Shown: one piece after another, positions 24,001 through 30,000 of the stretch
Layout of the letters: every line of letters begins with the position of its first letter
Position numbering within the stretch: the stretch's first letter is position 1
NCBI GenBank assembly: GCA_964449585.1
Contig: CAYUZE010000001.1
Location: 42,836 to 106,835, forward strand
Reading direction: 5' to 3'
Origin: an uncultured Gammaproteobacteria bacterium
GTDB lineage: Bacteria > Patescibacteriota > Microgenomatia > UBA10105 > UBA927
DNA: 64,000 bases
Program-made: the position numbers

Positions 24001-27000
24001 CTTTCATCCATGCCTTCAGCTTTTTCGCCTCCGATACCGGCAGAGGGCGGGGACCGATAAGCGCCATTTCGCCCCGCAGCACATTAATAATCTGAGGGAG
24101 CTCATCGAGCCCCGTATGACTTAAAAAGGCGCCTATCCGGGTGAATCGGGGATCATTACGGATTTTAAATACCGGACCGTCCGATTCATTTTGTTTCATG
24201 AGCTGCCGCTTCTTCTTGTCTGCGGAACGGATCATTGTTCGGAATTTATAGATCGTAAACAATTCGCCGTTTTTCCCGACCCGTACCTGACGAAAAATAA
24301 CGGGAAATCCGGAAGTAAACGCGATAAATACCGTTATTACGGCAAGAACCGGTACTAAACAGATACCGATAAGTGTGATGGCGACGATATAGATTTTCTT
24401 CATAGATCAACAACAGCTTTCAGCATCGGGAAATACACGAAACGTCACTTTAGTGCCGGTGTTCCTCCCCATGACAGGAATTCCATGGAAAAGGACGGTT
24501 ACGCACCCGAGTGGATGCCGTCTCCCCGCTGATATGCTTCCCACATAATCGATAACCCTTTTGTTACATCCGTCGACGGATGCCACCCCGTGTCTTCCGA
24601 TACGCGCGTATTATCAGAAACATAATAGCGCTGGTCGCTTTTTCTCCAGGGCAATAGCGTATATTGGAGCGGATTTCCGGGAAATAACGCATCTATCGTA
24701 TGGACTAACTCCAATACGCTTGTATGGAATCCTTTGCCGGTACCCCCGCCGACATTGTATGTTTTGCCGTGGAGATCAGCCATGTGTTCTACCTGATACA
24801 CATACAAGTCTGCAACGTCAGCGGCAAACAACACATCACGGACTTGTTTCCCGTTTCCGTATATCCGAATCGGCAAATTACCCCGTTTGGCACGGATAAA
24901 CCAATCCACCCACCCCTGCGACTCTACCCCCTTTTGAAACTCCCCATAAATACAGCTCATGCGGTTAATCACATAGGGAATGCCGTAAATATTTCCGTAC
25001 TCTCTGGTGTACTTTTCGGCGGCAAGTTTTCCCGCGCCATAGGGAGAATTTGTGTACCCATCCCATCCGTCCACATCGGCGGACTCGGCGATCCCGCGAC
25101 TGAACTCTCGACCGGTAGGAACATAGCGCTCTTCCGATTCCCTCAGAGATATGTTGTTTAATTTATCGGTATATACTTTATTGCTTGACGCAAAGATGAC
25201 AGGGAGGCAGCCACTGATCTTGGCGTATTCTAATACATTCAGATGTCCGCTGACGTTAATCCGAAAATCAAAAAGAGGGTCGGCGATACTCTTGGGAACC
25301 GCGGGATTAGCGGCTAAGTTAATGACACAATCAATCCCTTTGGGCAATTGCAAAAAATCTTTTTTTACTTTGATATCTCCCTTAACAAACTGAAAATTGT
25401 CAGACTTACGAAGATAGGCAAGATTTTGGTGAACGCCATTTCTTGCAAGCGAATCAAATGCGATAACACGATGGCCTCGCTTCATGGCGGCACGGGCAAT
25501 ATTCGTTCCAATAAAACCAACTCCACCGAAAATAACTATGTTCATGCTCTAAGGATATGCATTCGGACTGTCGAACAAGCATATTGTACTACACGCGTAT
25601 CATATCCAATCTGTCTTTCAAACGACATAGACAAAAACGCCATAAAACCGCGGAAACTTGTATAATACGGCTCATGATCAACCGGGCATCACATTTTTGG
25701 GAACTTTTGTGGGGGATGACGGAACGGGAATTGCGCGCAAGGTACAAAAATACAGTATTTGGATTTATTTGGCTTGTTGCAAACCCCGTATTACAAATGC
25801 TTATTATTGGTTTTGTCTTTCCGTTGTTTATAAAAGGCGCAGTGCCCAATTACAACTTCTATCTTCTTACCGGGCTCCTCGCCTGGAACTTTTTTTCTCT
25901 TTCTCTTTCAAAAACGACCCCATCCATCGTCAACGAGCGGTCACTGATAAAAAAGGCCTTTTTTCCCAGAGAAGTTATTCCAATTTCCATGATCCTTTCG
26001 AACTTCATAAATTATCTGGCCGCGTTTGCACTCTTCATGATGCCGGTGTTTTTTCTCGACACGCTCACTCCCGGTTCACTCCTCTTCTTTCTGCTCGGGC
26101 TTGCGCTTTTAGTGATCTTCACGGTGGGCGCGAGTTTGCTCACCTCTGCGCTCAACGTCCGGTTCCGGGACATTAACTTTTTTGTGCAGGCTATCCTCAT
26201 CATTTGGTTTTATGCGACTCCGATTGTCTATTCTCTTTCGCAGATCCCAAAGCATTATCTTTGGCTATGGCGGTTTAACCCGTTAACATCCTGCATACAG
26301 CTCATGCAGCATGCCCTGGTGGGATCGGCATTACCCGGACCCGGCATGATTGCGGCCAATGCATTGGTGATCTCTATAACTTTCTTACTCGGGGCATTTA
26401 TTTTTCGAAGAGAAAGTAAAAATTTTGATGATTGGCTCTAAACCATGATTTACTATTCAAACAGCAATCTCACCATACCCCATCTGACGTTTATCGGCCG
26501 GTGGACACCGTTTCATAAAGGTCATATAGCGATCATCGAAAAAAAACGTGCGGAGCATCCGAAAGCCCCCGTACTCATAATGGTCCGAAATACAAAAGAA
26601 GATGCGTATCCTCCTGCGGTGCGCGCCGAATATATCAAAATTTGGATGCAAAAAAAGAGCGTCAAAGGAACAATCATGATCATTCCGAACGTCGAAGGCG
26701 TATATTGGGGACGCGGTGTCGGATATAATGTCGGTGTTGTTGACGTAGACACATCGGTACAGAAAATATCTGGCACCCGTATACGCAACCAGATAGCAAA
26801 AAGATCTGCCGGCTGGAAACATAGCGTTGCCGACACAACCGCATCATATTTGCTTTCACCGAAAGTGTCTCACATAATCGACAGCGGTCTTGTCATCTGG
26901 CTTACGGGATGTCCTTCAAGCGGCAAAACAACGATTGCCCACGCGTTGTCCGACACGCTTCACGAACGATTCCCCCATATCAGAACGCAGATACTTGACG

Positions 27001-30000
27001 GAGACGACATGCGAACCAGCCCTCTGGCCGCAGGGGTAGGTTTCAGCAAAGATGATCGCGCCAATCATATACGAAGAATGTTCTATCTTGCGGATTTGTT
27101 CGCTAAACACGGCGTTATTGTCATCTGCGCATTCGTTTCTCCCGATGCGGCAATTCGCAATGAGGCAAAACGTCATATCGGAAAACAACGTTTTGTTGAA
27201 GTATATGTCCACGCAAACAAAAAATTACGAATGATGCGAGATAATAAAGGTTTGTATCGCAAAGCAAAACTGGGGAAGATTAACAATCTTACCGGCTTCA
27301 ATGCCCCATACCAAAAATCGCGGCATCCTGATGTGGTGTGTGACACCGGCAAAGTTACGCTTGTTTCTTGTGTGAATCGTATTCTGCAGTATATTATGTC
27401 ACGTTAATACCGAAACCATTATGATGAAATCAAACCGTCGTACCGCTTTATCTTTCACCAAACCCATCAGCACTGCTACTGATGCGATCGTCCTTGACGA
27501 TGTGCATAAGCGGTATATCCTTCATCATGAAAAACCTACGCTCACGGAAACATTATTGAGAAAGTACACGGAAAAATTCTATGCGTTAAAATCTGTCACA
27601 TTAAACATAAAAAAAGGGGAAAAAATTGGCATCACCGGCCGAAACGGATCCGGAAAAACAACACTCCTTAAGCTTATCGCCGGTATCGCAACACCGACAA
27701 GCGGGGTGATTAGAAGGTACGGAAAGGTTGTATCGCTTATAGATCTTGATGCGGGGTTCCATGCTGATTTAACCGGCATTCAGAATATTATGCTGAACGG
27801 CATGCTGCTCGGCATGACAAAAACCGAACTCCGCAGCAAGCTCCAGAGCATTATTCGCCATGCAGACATAGGGAAATTCATCGACACCCCGATGTTTGGA
27901 TATTCTCTCGGCATGAAGCTTCGATTGGGTTTTGCGATCGCAATTCACTCGGAGCCGGACATACTCATTATGGATGAGGGCATATCGGTAGGGGACGTGT
28001 TTTTTAAGGAGAAAAACATCGCCGCGCTGAAAAAAATATTCCAAACCGACAAAACGCTTCTTCTCGTTTCACACAACATCACGACAATAAACGAAATATG
28101 TGAACGGATGATAATACTTGATAAAGGACAGATAAAATACGACGGCAAAACGCTGGACGACGAAGCGTATAAGCGAAAATTATCTACGTTTAAATAACAG
28201 TATCCAAGCACCGTGCCGCCAGCGGCTTTTCCAACTCAGGTAATTAGCCTCCTATGCTATCATTGCATTAAACAACAGCATAAAATGTTTCACCCGGAAC
28301 ATATGACCGCTAAGAAAGATCTCGTCCGCAACACTCCGCTCAAACACCTAAAAGGATATGCACTCGCACTTTTGATCGTTGCCGTGGTAATTTCCGCATT
28401 CATCACCATAGACATACTCGCTTCCTTGCTCTATTCAGTCACAAAAAATACCGTGTTTTCCAAAAAACAACTGCAAGACCGCCTGAGCGCCGTTGTGCAG
28501 ACCCAAAATACCGATGTTCTAGGCGCAAATACAACCGCAGAAACGGCACGGCACATTTTACATCCCTATCTCGGTTTCGTGGCAGATCCGGAAAAAAATC
28601 CGGGCATTAATCAACTCGGGTGGATCGGTCCGAATCCCGTAGGGAAAAACAGTGCCGACACTATAAGAATTATCATCTTTGGCGGATCGGTCGCCCAACA
28701 GTTATATGAGGCATCAGCCGATTCGCTGACCAATAAACTGAAATCAGATGAGCGGTTTGCCGACAAAAAAATTGAGGTGTTTAATGCGGCCCTGAGCGGA
28801 TATAAACAACCCCAGCAGCTCGAGGCTCTCACGTATTTGCTTTCTATGGGATCGGAATACAACATCATTATCAATCTTGACGGATTTAATGAACTTGCAC
28901 TCCCGTATGCCGAAAACTGGAAAAATCGCGTTGCAATAAATTACCCCAGAGGTTGGAATTTTTATGCCAAAAAAACGGTTAACAACACCGCATTGGATGC
29001 GATGATCAATCTGGAAGAAATTAGATCCAAACGTAAAGAGCTTGCTTCTTTGTTTAATACCCGTCTGGTAAAGGACAACATGACCTCACTTCTTGTATGG
29101 AACATACTCGACAGAAATAATCGTATCGCCGAATACGAACATACGCAGATTTTGAGTGATGCGCTCGCCGGCGATGCCCCTTCGTACCAGACACATGGCC
29201 CCACATCCGACGCCACCGACGGCATGACCGTACTCGAAAAATTGGCGGATACCTGGTATAACTCGTCCGTTCAAATGGCAAGGATTTCGACAGCAAATCA
29301 CAGTACCTATTTACATTTTTTGCAACCGAACCAATATGTGCCCAATTCAAAACGCTTTACGGATCAGGAACGAAAGAGCGCCCTCGCAGGGACCGGCGGC
29401 ATAGATGAAAACAATATTCATCAGGTAAATGCGGCGCTCTTTAACGAAGCGGTTATCAACGGTTATCCCATGCTGCAGCATCTCGGCCAAAAGCTTCGAG
29501 AACAGCAAATCCGATTTTATGATCTTACTCTGATTTATCAGCATACGGCGGAGACCATTTACAAAGATTCGTGCTGTCATGTAAACGAAGAGGGAAACGA
29601 GCGACTTATTACCGCTATAGCCGAAATAATTCGTAAGGAATATCTCCCGTAATCTTATTACGAAGACGTATACCAAACCCGATAGGGGATCGTAACTTGC
29701 GGTCATCAGGATGCTGTACACTACTTCATATGGGAAACACGGCAGCTCAGCACCATATACTAAACTCAAAACCGCTCCTCCTGCTCTTTATTATCCTGGT
29801 AATCGGCTCATTTTTACGTCTGTATCGTTTTGCCGATTTTATGCAAATTGATGGCGATCATGGCCGGGACATACTGATAGCAAAACACATAGTGGAACAT
29901 AAAGAAGGGTATTGGGCGGCTCCGTATGCGCTCGGTTCCAATGGAATAGTAAAAAATTCTCCGGTGTATTACTGGATACTCGCGTCTATGTGGTTACTAT

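Follow-up and report, generated by a model that had tools for sequence, protein, structure and literature searches.

The closest described systems couple an ATP sulfurylase to an APS kinase in one polypeptide, as in Sat-CysC of Aquifex aeolicus (2gks) and PAPSS1 of metazoans (1x6v), in which the sulfurylase part spans about 380 amino acids and includes a PUA-like N-domain and the motifs QxRNPxHxxH and GRDHAG. The CysD/CysN enzyme is GTP-driven and consists of a PAPS_reduct-type ATP pyrophosphatase and a GTPase, the latter fused to CysC in Mycobacterium tuberculosis (CysNC). A nucleotidyltransferase is also found together with an APS-kinase-family enzyme in the surface-glycan cluster of Campylobacter jejuni, where the cytidylyltransferase Cj1416 and the CDP-amidate 3'-kinase Cj1415, an APS-kinase homolog, belong to the O-methyl-phosphoramidate (MeOPN) pathway. 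This pathway makes a 3'-phosphorylated nucleotide donor (PMC11800397). Among viruses, 62 cysC auxiliary metabolic genes have been counted in 7,334 high-quality phage genomes (PMC10914622), and phage cysC has been read as assimilatory sulfate reduction (PMC10914622; bioRxiv 10.1101/2021.01.05.425418).

Here we analyzed a 64,000-nucleotide stretch of contig CAYUZE010000001.1 from an uncultured CPR bacterium with a tiny genome (the window). The initial annotation had placed a nucleotidyltransferase-APS kinase fusion between the Wzm and Wzt exporter genes, and an ORF of 320 amino acids lies exactly there with ABC genes on both sides (Table 1). Its start follows the stop of the ABC-2 permease, a gene that probably begins downstream of its ORF start, by 3 nt, and its end precedes the ABC ATPase ORF by 13 nt. 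Permease orthologs adjoin the fusion in loci L003, L004, L006, L007, and L171, and ATPase orthologs lie directly 3' of it in L003 and L171; the tie to glycan export, proposed from operon position, is thereby kept in relatives too. About 75 full-length fused homologs were found (50–99% identity), the closest of which (87%) comes from a Patescibacteria bacterium. Sulfate assimilation is usually missing from reduced genomes such as those of Patescibacteria. The full-length AlphaFold2 model of the protein has a pLDDT of 91.9 and a pTM of 0.83.

Table 1. Features of the fusion gene and its surroundings in the window
Feature	Residues	Coordinates	Strand	Basis or remark
Initiating sugar-phosphate transferase (Bac_transf)		23798..24403	-	PF02397 5e-48
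NAD-dependent epimerase/dehydratase		24499..25545	-	PF01370 1e-45
Wzm-type ABC-2 permease		25557..26441	+	PF01061 5.3e-20, residues 50-253
Fusion ORF, 320 aa: N-terminal small nucleotidyltransferase, C-terminal APS kinase		26445..27407	+	ORF list, sequence
N-domain, HxGH (NMNAT-like) nucleotidyltransferase, candidate minimal ATP sulfurylase	1-136	26445..26852	+	
GRWTPFHKGH, ATP-binding (H/T)xGH signature with upstream Arg	G18-H27	26496..26525	+	
VRNT, includes family-specific R48	47-50	26583..26594	+	
GRGVGY loop, replaces NMN-binding segment of NMNAT	89-94	26709..26726	+	Putative sulfate site
ISGTRIR, second nucleotidyltransferase signature	108-114	26766..26786	+	
Inter-domain linker	137-146	26853..26882	+	Between Pfam/TIGRFAM and family-HMM domain boundaries; helical in full-length model
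APS kinase domain	147-318	26883..27398	+	Pfam/TIGRFAM boundaries, motifs
Kinase P-loop GCPSSGKTT	155-163	26907-26933	+	
Kinase LDGDDMR	184-190	26994-27014	+	
Kinase motif GFSKDDRANHIRR	199-211	27039-27077	+	
Kinase FVSP	230-233	27132-27143	+	
Wzt-type ABC ATPase, 258 aa, without carbohydrate-binding extension		27421..28197	+	PF00005 6.5e-23
Conserved ORFs of 479 and 537 aa, 3' of Wzt		28213..31310	+	479 aa: no Pfam match; 537 aa: weak PMT_2/GT-C-like membrane protein
GT2 glycosyltransferase		31316..32341	-	PF00535 1.8e-19
GT1/GT4 glycosyltransferase		32333..33406	+	PF13692, PF00534 about 1e-12; 4-nt overlap with sulfotransferase start
Sulfotransferase, presumed PAPS consumer		33403..34185	+	PF13469 2.4e-12 (48 bits, cut-off 27), PF09037, PF00685

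The C-terminal half of the protein is a canonical APS kinase of predicted activity. It scores 175.1 bits with the APS kinase equivalog model TIGR00455 (cut-off 138.7) and 155.5 bits with PF01583 (cut-off 21.1; 1.4e-45; residues 148–300), and its fold is that of solved APS kinases. Every APS kinase motif had been assigned to this half; the P-loop, LDGDxxR, SxxDR, and FVSP are indeed present, but the Asn of 'NIRR' is a His (ANHIRR), as it is in the aligned sequence of the solved kinase 2yvu from A. pernix (RLRHLKR).

The N-domain carries both signatures reported for it, HxGH (within GRWTPFHKGH) and ISxTxIR (ISGTRIR). The domain has about 136 residues rather than 140. Its description as a cytidylyltransferase fold holds at the superfamily level only: the cytidylyltransferase-like family (PF01467; TagD/CCT/ECT type) was rejected (18.1 bits; cut-off 21), and the nearest structures are adenylyltransferases. 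The fold is nearest to these and not to TagD-type cytidylyltransferases, and in sequence as well as fold the domain is nearer to NMNAT and PPAT than to ATP sulfurylase. Both ATP-binding motifs of archaeal NMNAT (GRxQPxHxGH and SGTxxRR) are matched in alignments, GRWTPFHKGH to GRFQPFHKGH and ISGTRIR to SGTEIRRR. Across 130 family members, the predicted ATP-binding residues are 97–100% conserved (R19 and H27, 100%, as is G18; H24, 98%; S109, 99%; T111, 97%; R114, 99%). The N-domain differs from archaeal NadM (M. jannaschii MJ0541, 1f9a; M. thermautotrophicus, 1ej2/1hyb) between strand 4 and the GY position, a stretch that we take to be the NMN-binding region: 11 residues separate IIP from GY, about 21 fewer than the 32 of 1f9a/1ej2, and the segment is replaced by the GRGVGY loop (G89, 98%; R90, 99%; V92, 96%; G93, 100%; Y94, 98% in the same 130 members), the motif GRxVGY being present also in relatives from L001–L006 and L008. 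In addition, VRNT stands where the alignment shows the GSAQ turn of NadM, and its R48 is conserved in 98% of the family and invariant in 61 fused homologs.

That the N-domain is no canonical ATP sulfurylase, as the initial annotation held, agrees with our searches. PF01747 (Sat) gave no match to the fusion protein at E<=0.01, a profile of the N-domain family retrieved no ATP sulfurylase from the PDB sequences at E<=10, and the Sat active-site motifs QxRNPxHxxH and GRDHAG are absent from the fusion, which has GRWTPFHKGH and GRGVGY instead and lacks the PUA-like N-domain of the bifunctional enzymes. What it shares with canonical ATP sulfurylase is the ISGTxxR motif and the HxGH-superfamily Rossmann-like fold; the Aquifex enzyme has ISGTEIR, gaplessly colinear with the fusion up to the kinase P-loop. 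The bifunctional Sat/APS kinase model NF004040 reaches 158.3 bits (cut-off 669), aligning residues 68–319 to profile positions 316–566 only, and in structural comparison with known bifunctional enzymes no two-domain superposition was obtained, the kinase domain alone aligning.

The N-domain family comprises 433 cluster representatives (E<=1e-10) and 396 IMG/VR stretches, and in hundreds of phages and microbes its members stand beside an APS kinase or are fused to one. A kinase was fused or linked to the N-domain in 84 of 88 genomic and viral loci (19 with a fusion, 57 with an adjacent same-strand gene no more than 300 bp away, and 8 with a gene within 900 bp), and three of the four remaining loci are at contig edges. 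The N-domain is a separate gene in most of these loci. Fusion occurs in both domain orders: an APS kinase is fused to the N-domain in about 56 of the 158 top-ranking family representatives, and the best 120 full-length matches are all two-domain proteins (91 N-domain-kinase and 29 kinase-N-domain). Conversely, 61 of 80 viral APS kinase loci have an N-domain at most 4 kb from the kinase. Many viral partner kinases are divergent and span only PF01583 profile positions of about 4–110; PF01583 was the best Pfam family, above cut-off, for all 10 divergent partners sampled. Family members are annotated in databases only as 'adenylyl-sulfate kinase', and no earlier description of the family was found in the literature searched. 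We take these proteins to form a previously undescribed family of predicted adenylyltransferases of the NMNAT-like HxGH type.

We then considered the neighboring genes. The sugar-phosphate transferase and epimerase genes are divergent from the exporter operon and conserved in L171 and L172. The Patescibacteria relative L171 also has counterparts of the 479- and 537-aa ORFs (449 and 540 aa) at the same position, the GT2 and GT1/GT4 genes in the same order, and the sulfotransferase ortholog at the same relative position, where L002 has one too. Sulfotransferases also lie beside the N-domain/kinase pair in unrelated contexts: in Omnitrophica (L173) a methyltransferase gene and two genes for sulfotransferases come after the fusion, in an archaeal-type locus (L175) a sulfotransferase accompanies a CysQ-family gene that overlaps the fusion and a second kinase, and in phage cassettes sulfotransferases recur with the N-domain/kinase pair. 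Overall, a sulfotransferase lies near the pair in 45 of 90 loci, the recurrent families being PF13469, PF00685, PF03567, and PF17784. Two phage loci (L116 and L144) have a sulfotransferase and an APS kinase without the N-domain, which suggests that the N-domain is dispensable to such cassettes. Cultured Xylella and Stenotrophomonas phages have a short kinase-domain fusion next to a NADAR/COG3236-like gene, and no sulfotransferase was detected near it, so part of the family may serve another purpose; no sulfotransferase was detected in the Salvovirus-type phages either.

The reported lack of sat and cysDN in the window was confirmed by Pfam scans, which covered all 60 ORFs of 150 aa or more, directly or through a representative, and found no Sat, CysD, or CysN, and by a six-frame scan, which found no QxRNPxHxxH, GRDHAG, SGGKDS, or CysN P-loop; the combination of a PAPS_reduct-type CysD bearing SGGKDS with a CysN GTPase was absent from the window by both approaches. 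Sat/CysD/CysN signatures were likewise absent from about 1.3 Mb of flanks holding N-domain loci. CysD/CysN occupies the same operon slot as the N-domain, beside or fused to an APS kinase, but has an unrelated fold, and the N-domain has no GTPase partner. A single viral kinase locus, L169, has CysD and CysN-CysC, and there the N-domain is missing; the complementary pattern of N-domain and CysDN consists of this one locus.

The proposal that the N-domain is a minimal sulfate-adenylylating module is the reading that these data support best. We find it reasonably probable, on comparative and structural grounds, that the 320-aa protein is a compact PAPS synthase that feeds the sulfotransferase of the cluster, because the family is almost always fused or adjacent to APS kinases with both fusion orders, because sulfotransferases recur nearby in unrelated genomic contexts, because no flank examined pairs the N-domain with a canonical Sat or CysDN, and because its fold is nearest to adenylyltransferases, unlike TagD-type cytidylyltransferases. 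The N-domain would convert ATP and sulfate into APS and PPi, with ATP held by GRxxPxHxGH and ISGTxIR and sulfate presented by the family-specific arginines R48 and R90 (GRxVGY loop) in place of the NMN pocket. The fused kinase, to which APS may be channelled, would phosphorylate the 3'-OH of APS to yield PAPS, pulling the unfavorable first step forward. PAPS would be consumed by the sulfotransferase to sulfate a glycan, the putative acceptor, which would be assembled on a lipid carrier by the neighboring glycosyltransferases and exported via Wzm/Wzt.

It is unlikely that the N-domain is instead a nucleotide-binding module without sulfurylase activity (a regulator, an APS/PAPS sensor, or an oligomerization scaffold), in which case APS could be supplied by a canonical Sat or CysDN encoded at another place in the genome, or by the host in the case of phages. 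Fungal ATP sulfurylases bear a non-catalytic APS-kinase-like allosteric domain and thus offer a precedent for degenerate partner domains in this pathway; the entries 1i2d/1m8p and 3cr8 are among the matches. The phages with kinase and sulfotransferase alone would also fit, but the near-complete conservation of catalytic-type HxGH residues across diverse members is unusual for a degenerate domain, and both the frequent occurrence of the N-domain as a separate gene and the lack of a canonical ATP sulfurylase in any examined flank containing it argue against such a role. Quite improbable, in our view, is that the pair makes another 3'-phosphorylated nucleotide donor, the N-domain joining ATP (or CTP) to a different small anion and the kinase-like domain phosphorylating the 3'-OH. 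The Campylobacter enzymes Cj1415–Cj1418, which produce CDP-phosphoramidate 3'-phosphate (PMC11800397), are a precedent, and the surface-glycan setting of the window, the divergence of many viral partner kinases, and the Salvovirus-type phages are consistent with it. However, the window kinase scores above the cut-off of the equivalog model for APS kinase, the recurrent neighbors are bona fide sulfotransferase families, L175 has a CysQ-family gene overlapping its fusion, and the MeOPN pathway needs CTP, a glutamine kinase, and an amidohydrolase, whereas Pfam scans found no gene of the latter two types in the window. Finally, it is hardly credible that the N-domain is a plain NAD-synthesis enzyme, an NMN/NaMN adenylyltransferase that is fused to APS kinase by chance: archaeal NMNAT is the best sequence and fold match and one source calls a family member 'nicotinic acid mononucleotide adenylyltransferase', but NF002243 (28.6 bits, cut-off 127) and TIGR01527 (19.8 bits, cut-off 181.2) stay far under their cut-offs and match residues 16–50 only, the NMN-binding segment is deleted, and the partners are APS kinase and sulfotransferases rather than NAD genes, with NadV and Nudix NAD-salvage genes not among the recurrent neighbor families.

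The N-domain family occurs in hundreds of IMG/VR contigs and also in CPR bacteria, DPANN-type archaea, Omnitrophica, and other MAGs. A broader proposal, which we regard as evenly poised, is that the N-domain (~135 aa) represents a minimal ATP sulfurylase of a third class that arose from an NMNAT-like adenylyltransferase, forms with APS kinase the smallest known PAPS synthase, and has been spread mainly by phages. The phage APS kinase genes considered here are those that have been reported as viral 'cysC' auxiliary metabolic genes, and a term search of PMC10914622 and bioRxiv 10.1101/2021.01.05.425418 found no mention of a partner domain, sulfotransferases, or DUF2061. Since 61 of the 80 viral kinase loci have the N-domain, many with sulfotransferase and glycosyltransferase genes, these loci can be read as sulfation cassettes. 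If the proposal is true, such a cassette would comprise the kinase, the small sulfurylase, a DUF2061 membrane protein, a sulfotransferase, and glycosyltransferases, and most viral 'cysC' genes would be parts of self-contained sulfation cassettes and would not serve assimilatory sulfate reduction.

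The fusion ORF is flanked by ORFs matching PF01061 and PF00005 and thus lies between Wzm- and Wzt-type exporter genes, the placement that the initial annotation had given it (see table). Its residues 147–318 form a canonical APS kinase, as this region matches PF01583 (1.4e-45) and scores 175.1 bits against the equivalog-domain model TIGR00455 (cut-off 138.7), and solved APS kinases match it at 7e-39. The APS kinase motifs listed in the initial annotation are present, except that the Asn of the NIRR motif is replaced by His, a substitution also found in the solved kinase 2yvu. 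When a full-length model of the protein was compared with the bifunctional Sat/APS kinase structures 2gks and 1x6v, its two domains could not be superposed together as one unit, so the comparison gives no support for a domain arrangement in common.

Surface-glycan genes, including many for glycosyltransferases, occupy more than half of the window, which also encodes DUF4012, tRNA synthetases, YidC and DnaA. With dnaA at the right end, the glycan region is located near the replication origin; at the left end there is a gene of the phage-integrase family. Since Wzx/Wzy-like genes are found together with the ABC exporter, both Wzx/Wzy-type and ABC-type export routes appear to be encoded. Two large ORFs separate the Mur ligase genes from the glycan cluster; they contain signal-peptide-like or low-complexity regions and matched almost nothing in Pfam. 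ORFs of about 520–775 amino acids, likened to them by size and position, occur in the related loci L003–L005.

Coordinates of features in the window and in the comparison loci (L handles)
Sequence	Coordinates	Feature	Remark
Window	11..634	Phage-integrase-family gene	Left end
Window	12428..15060; 34218..50445; 54746..62154	Surface-glycan regions	
Window	12428..13729; 44178..45578	Two Wzx-like flippases	
Window	13759..15060; 45579..47123; 60157..62154	Three Wzy_C/O-antigen-ligase-like genes	
Window	19899..21515; 21556..23625	Two large ORFs	538 aa; 689 aa
Window	25557..26441	ABC-2 permease (Wzm-type)	PF01061, 5e-20; stop 3 nt before fusion start
Window	26445..27407	Fusion ORF	+ strand; ATG start; 320 aa
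Window	27421..28197	ABC ATPase (Wzt-type)	PF00005, 6.5e-23; begins 13 nt past fusion end
Window	33403..34185	Sulfotransferase	PF13469, 48 bits
Window	34218..35237; 43244..44272	Two radical-SAM genes	
Window	37302..38213	QueC-like gene	
Window	57208..58914	Carbamoyltransferase	
Window	62272..63639	dnaA	Right end
L016	8383-8850	DUF2061 gene	Type example
L028; L048; L027	5786-6226; 8383-8808; 5049-5492	DUF2061 gene	
L023; L028; L048; L034	7507-7965; 4814-5341; 7491-8390; 7488-8384	Short divergent kinases (putative)	Examples; many others
L089	5578-6318	Cultured-phage fusion	Xylella phage Bacata
L090	4590-5321	Cultured-phage fusion	Stenotrophomonas phage DLP_6
L116; L144	2311-3996; 2518-3999	Glycosyltransferase-sulfotransferase fusion	PF02709 + PF17784
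L169	1857-4552	cysD and cysN-cysC fusion	IMG/VR contig; cysD, PF01507
L175	6062-9530	Sulfotransferase and CysQ-family (Inositol_P) genes with fusion gene and second APS kinase	Archaeal-type locus

The N-domain (residues 1–136) carries the motifs GRWTPFHKGH (residues 18–27) and ISGTRIR (residues 108–114). No curated family scored above its threshold on this domain (PF01467, 18.1 against 21; NF002243, 28.6 against 127; TIGR01527, 19.8 against 181). Among PDB sequences, the family profile matched only archaeal NMNAT (E 4e-6), with GRxQPFHKGH and SGTEIRRR as the aligned stretches. The segment between the IIP strand and the GY position, which we take to be the NMN pocket of archaeal NMNAT, is approximately 21 residues shorter in the family. 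Conservation was computed over 130 unique, near-full-length members. ATP-binding-type residues are nearly invariant (G18, R19 and H27 100%; H24 98%; S109 and R114 99%; T111 97%), and so are residues specific to the family and not found in NMNAT (R48 98%; G89-R90-x-V92-G93-Y94 96–100%). The ISGTxIR motif is the same as that of the Aquifex bifunctional enzyme 2gks, with which the fusion aligns without gaps from this motif to the kinase P-loop. Given the invariant residues, the profile matches and the ISGTxIR motif, the N-domain belongs to the ATP sulfurylase/NMNAT/PPAT superfamily, as an adenylyltransferase that looks catalytically intact and falls outside every described family, with its second-substrate site rebuilt as a short Gly/Arg-rich loop. 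Cytidylyltransferases ranked lower by fold (ECT 7.7, CCT 7.1, TagD 5.9), and this ranking and the genomic context rule out a TagD-type cytidylyltransferase.

An exhaustive profile search over 1.84 billion cluster representatives retrieved 1,506 family members at E<=1e-3 and 433 at E<=1e-10. The top 158 representatives comprise 99 stand-alone proteins (approximately 140 amino acids) and approximately 56 fused to APS kinase in either order. All 120 best full-length matches contain both domains, 91 as N-domain-kinase and 29 as kinase-N-domain; the existence of both orders implies more than one independent origin of the fusion. The genome collection contributed 7 loci (Ca. Gottesmanbacteria, a Nanoarchaeota MAG, 'Gammaproteobacteria'/Pseudomonadales MAGs and a Bacteroides contig), and IMG/VR 396 encoding stretches, 80 of which were fetched for analysis. 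By 3-round jackhmmer, the kinase was fused to the N-domain in 19 of 88 loci, encoded by a separate gene within 300 bp on the same strand in 57, and separate within 900 bp in 8; in the 4 loci where no kinase was found, the N-domain gene was at a contig edge in 3. When the partner kinases were re-tested by single-pass phmmer, motif checks and Pfam, the linkage held at the Pfam-family level and a class of short divergent partners emerged. About half of the partners are canonical (E 1e-20 to 1e-73 against the window kinase, motifs intact), and PF01583 was the best Pfam family, above cut-off, for 10/10 divergent partners sampled. In the reverse direction, the small domain was found within 4 kb in 61 of the best 80 viral APS kinase loci.

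The nearest homolog (87% identity) is on a 1.23-Mb contig annotated as Patescibacteria group bacterium, and the window is syntenic with this contig and with a Ca. Gottesmanbacteria contig. With the DUF4012, tRNA synthetase, YidC and DnaA genes of the window, this synteny places its source among the CPR bacteria, in whose genomes sulfate assimilation is usually absent. Two loci titled 'uncultured Gammaproteobacteria', L003 and L004, share with the window and the CPR contigs L005 and L171 the order Mur ligase, two large ORFs, Bac_transf, Wzm and fusion, and their Wzm proteins match that of the window at E 1e-101 and 5e-124, respectively. A third locus with this title, L002, encodes the fusion and an ortholog of the window sulfotransferase. 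The taxonomic labels of these three MAGs are probably wrong.

In viruses, about half of the partners are the short divergent putative kinases, of approximately 150 amino acids, which match only positions ~4–110 of the 152-position APS kinase profile and in which a regular-expression search found no LDGDxxR, DRxxNIRR, SP or KGxY motif. The viral cassettes have a third conserved gene, which in most cases immediately follows that for the small nucleotidyltransferase and encodes a small membrane protein, DUF2061 (PF09834), either of approximately 146 amino acids with an N-terminal domain of about 85, or in a short form of about 70. In single-pass counts it was present in 64/90 loci of the forward set (collected by N-domain) and 49/80 of the reverse set (collected by viral kinase), and it was not found in the window or in cellular fused loci. 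A search for DUF2061 fusions with canonical sulfate-activation enzymes returned only proteins of ~146 amino acids that are 66–97% identical. In a single-sequence tblastn the window N-domain matched no cultured phage; a viral member used as query found fusions in Xylella, Xanthomonas and Stenotrophomonas phages. These are kinase-small-domain proteins of 243–246 amino acids encoded among early-type small genes, present also in Xylella phages Sano and Salvo and Xanthomonas phages AhaSv and Seregon, and annotated as 'kinase', 'adenylylsulfate kinase' or hypothetical (phrog_10255). The Bacata fusion adjoins a COG3236/NADAR-like gene. Near the Xylella and Stenotrophomonas phage fusions no sulfotransferase was detected. 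The cultured-phage members are experimentally tractable and may have a different role.

Sulfotransferases are recurrent functional neighbours of the N-domain, found by seed searches in 45/90 loci overall, with PF13469/PF00685 and PF03567 clusters in phage loci. The syntenic Patescibacteria locus L171 repeats the whole window cluster in the order Bac_transf, epimerase, Wzm, fusion, Wzt, two ORFs without assignment, GT2, GT1 and sulfotransferase. In L173 (Omnitrophica), one methyltransferase gene and two for sulfotransferases come after the fusion, and no exporter is present. In L175, an archaeal-type locus with STT3 and V-ATPase, a sulfotransferase gene is present and a CysQ-family gene overlaps that of the fusion; another APS kinase, encoded on its own, follows directly. 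In the phage loci L116 and L144, a glycosyltransferase-sulfotransferase fusion is directly upstream of the viral APS kinase, with neither the small domain nor a canonical ATP sulfurylase within 4 kb.

Pfam searches of all large ORFs and a motif scan detected no Sat, CysD or CysN in the window, in agreement with the initial annotation. Their signatures were likewise absent from L171–L175 and, apart from one isolated, chance-like match, from the first 90 loci, which together span 1.3 Mb. The only locus examined with a canonical ATP sulfurylase is L169, which lacks the small domain.

The sulfation steps recognised around the N-domain are APS kinase, sulfotransferase and, in one case, PAP phosphatase; sulfate adenylylation alone is missing from the pathway. 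Because the N-domain has the right chemistry for this sole missing step and belongs to the same superfamily as ATP sulfurylase, we propose that it is a minimal ATP sulfurylase, and the 320-residue protein a compact PAPS synthase. An oxyanion, putatively sulfate held by R48 and R90, would attack ATP at its alpha-phosphate, releasing PPi. The first step, catalyzed by ATP sulfurylase, is thermodynamically unfavourable, and fusion or translational coupling to the kinase, with putative channelling, would help to pull it. PAPS made in this way would feed the window sulfotransferase, which would decorate a lipid-linked glycan, the putative acceptor, for export by Wzm/Wzt. We hold this overall reading with moderate confidence.

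Alternatively, the N-domain could bind nucleotides in a regulatory or other non-sulfurylase role, and APS would come from another source. The search for canonical enzymes covered the window and the locus flanks, leaving the rest of the genomes as a possible source, and phages such as those of L116 and L144 combine kinase and sulfotransferase without the small domain. However, the catalytic residues of the N-domain are invariant, which makes this explanation unlikely. Somewhat less probable still is that the pair makes a different 3'-phosphonucleotide donor, for which the Campylobacter Cj1415/Cj1416 phosphoramidate pathway is a precedent (PMC11800397). This could fit the divergent members found in phages, for example the Salvovirus fusions adjoining a COG3236/NADAR-like gene, but the window kinase matches at equivalog level, the neighbours are sulfotransferases, and the other enzymes of the phosphoramidate pathway are absent. 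A true NMNAT is very improbable: the model scores are too low, the NMN segment is deleted and the genomic context does not fit.

The minimal sulfurylase reading also reveals an annotation gap: fused proteins are labelled by their kinase only ('adenylyl-sulfate kinase' in the source databases, 'kinase' in the PHROGs entry for the fused phage form), and stand-alone members are named as other enzymes ('nicotinic acid mononucleotide adenylyltransferase' or 'citrate lyase synthetase'). Our literature searches found no description of the N-domain. Two papers on viral cysC (PMC10914622; bioRxiv 10.1101/2021.01.05.425418) interpret the gene as an auxiliary metabolic gene of assimilatory sulfate reduction, and term searches of these papers returned no mention of the partner domain, sulfotransferases or DUF2061. 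If our proposal is correct, the widespread phage 'cysC' of viromes would serve sulfation of a glycan or other acceptor during infection rather than sulfur assimilation. To our knowledge, the ATP sulfurylases described to date are of just two kinds, the homo-oligomeric Sat and the GTP-driven CysDN. The N-domain would then be a third class, of approximately 135 residues and derived from an NMNAT-like enzyme, and the fusion would be a PAPS synthase whose sulfurylase module is of a new type. In biotechnology, such a fusion would serve enzymatic sulfation as a very small module, of two domains, that regenerates PAPS. In reduced genomes (CPR, DPANN) that encode APS kinase and sulfotransferases, the N-domain would supply the missing step of sulfate activation, and would explain how CPR/DPANN-type organisms sulfate their surface glycans.
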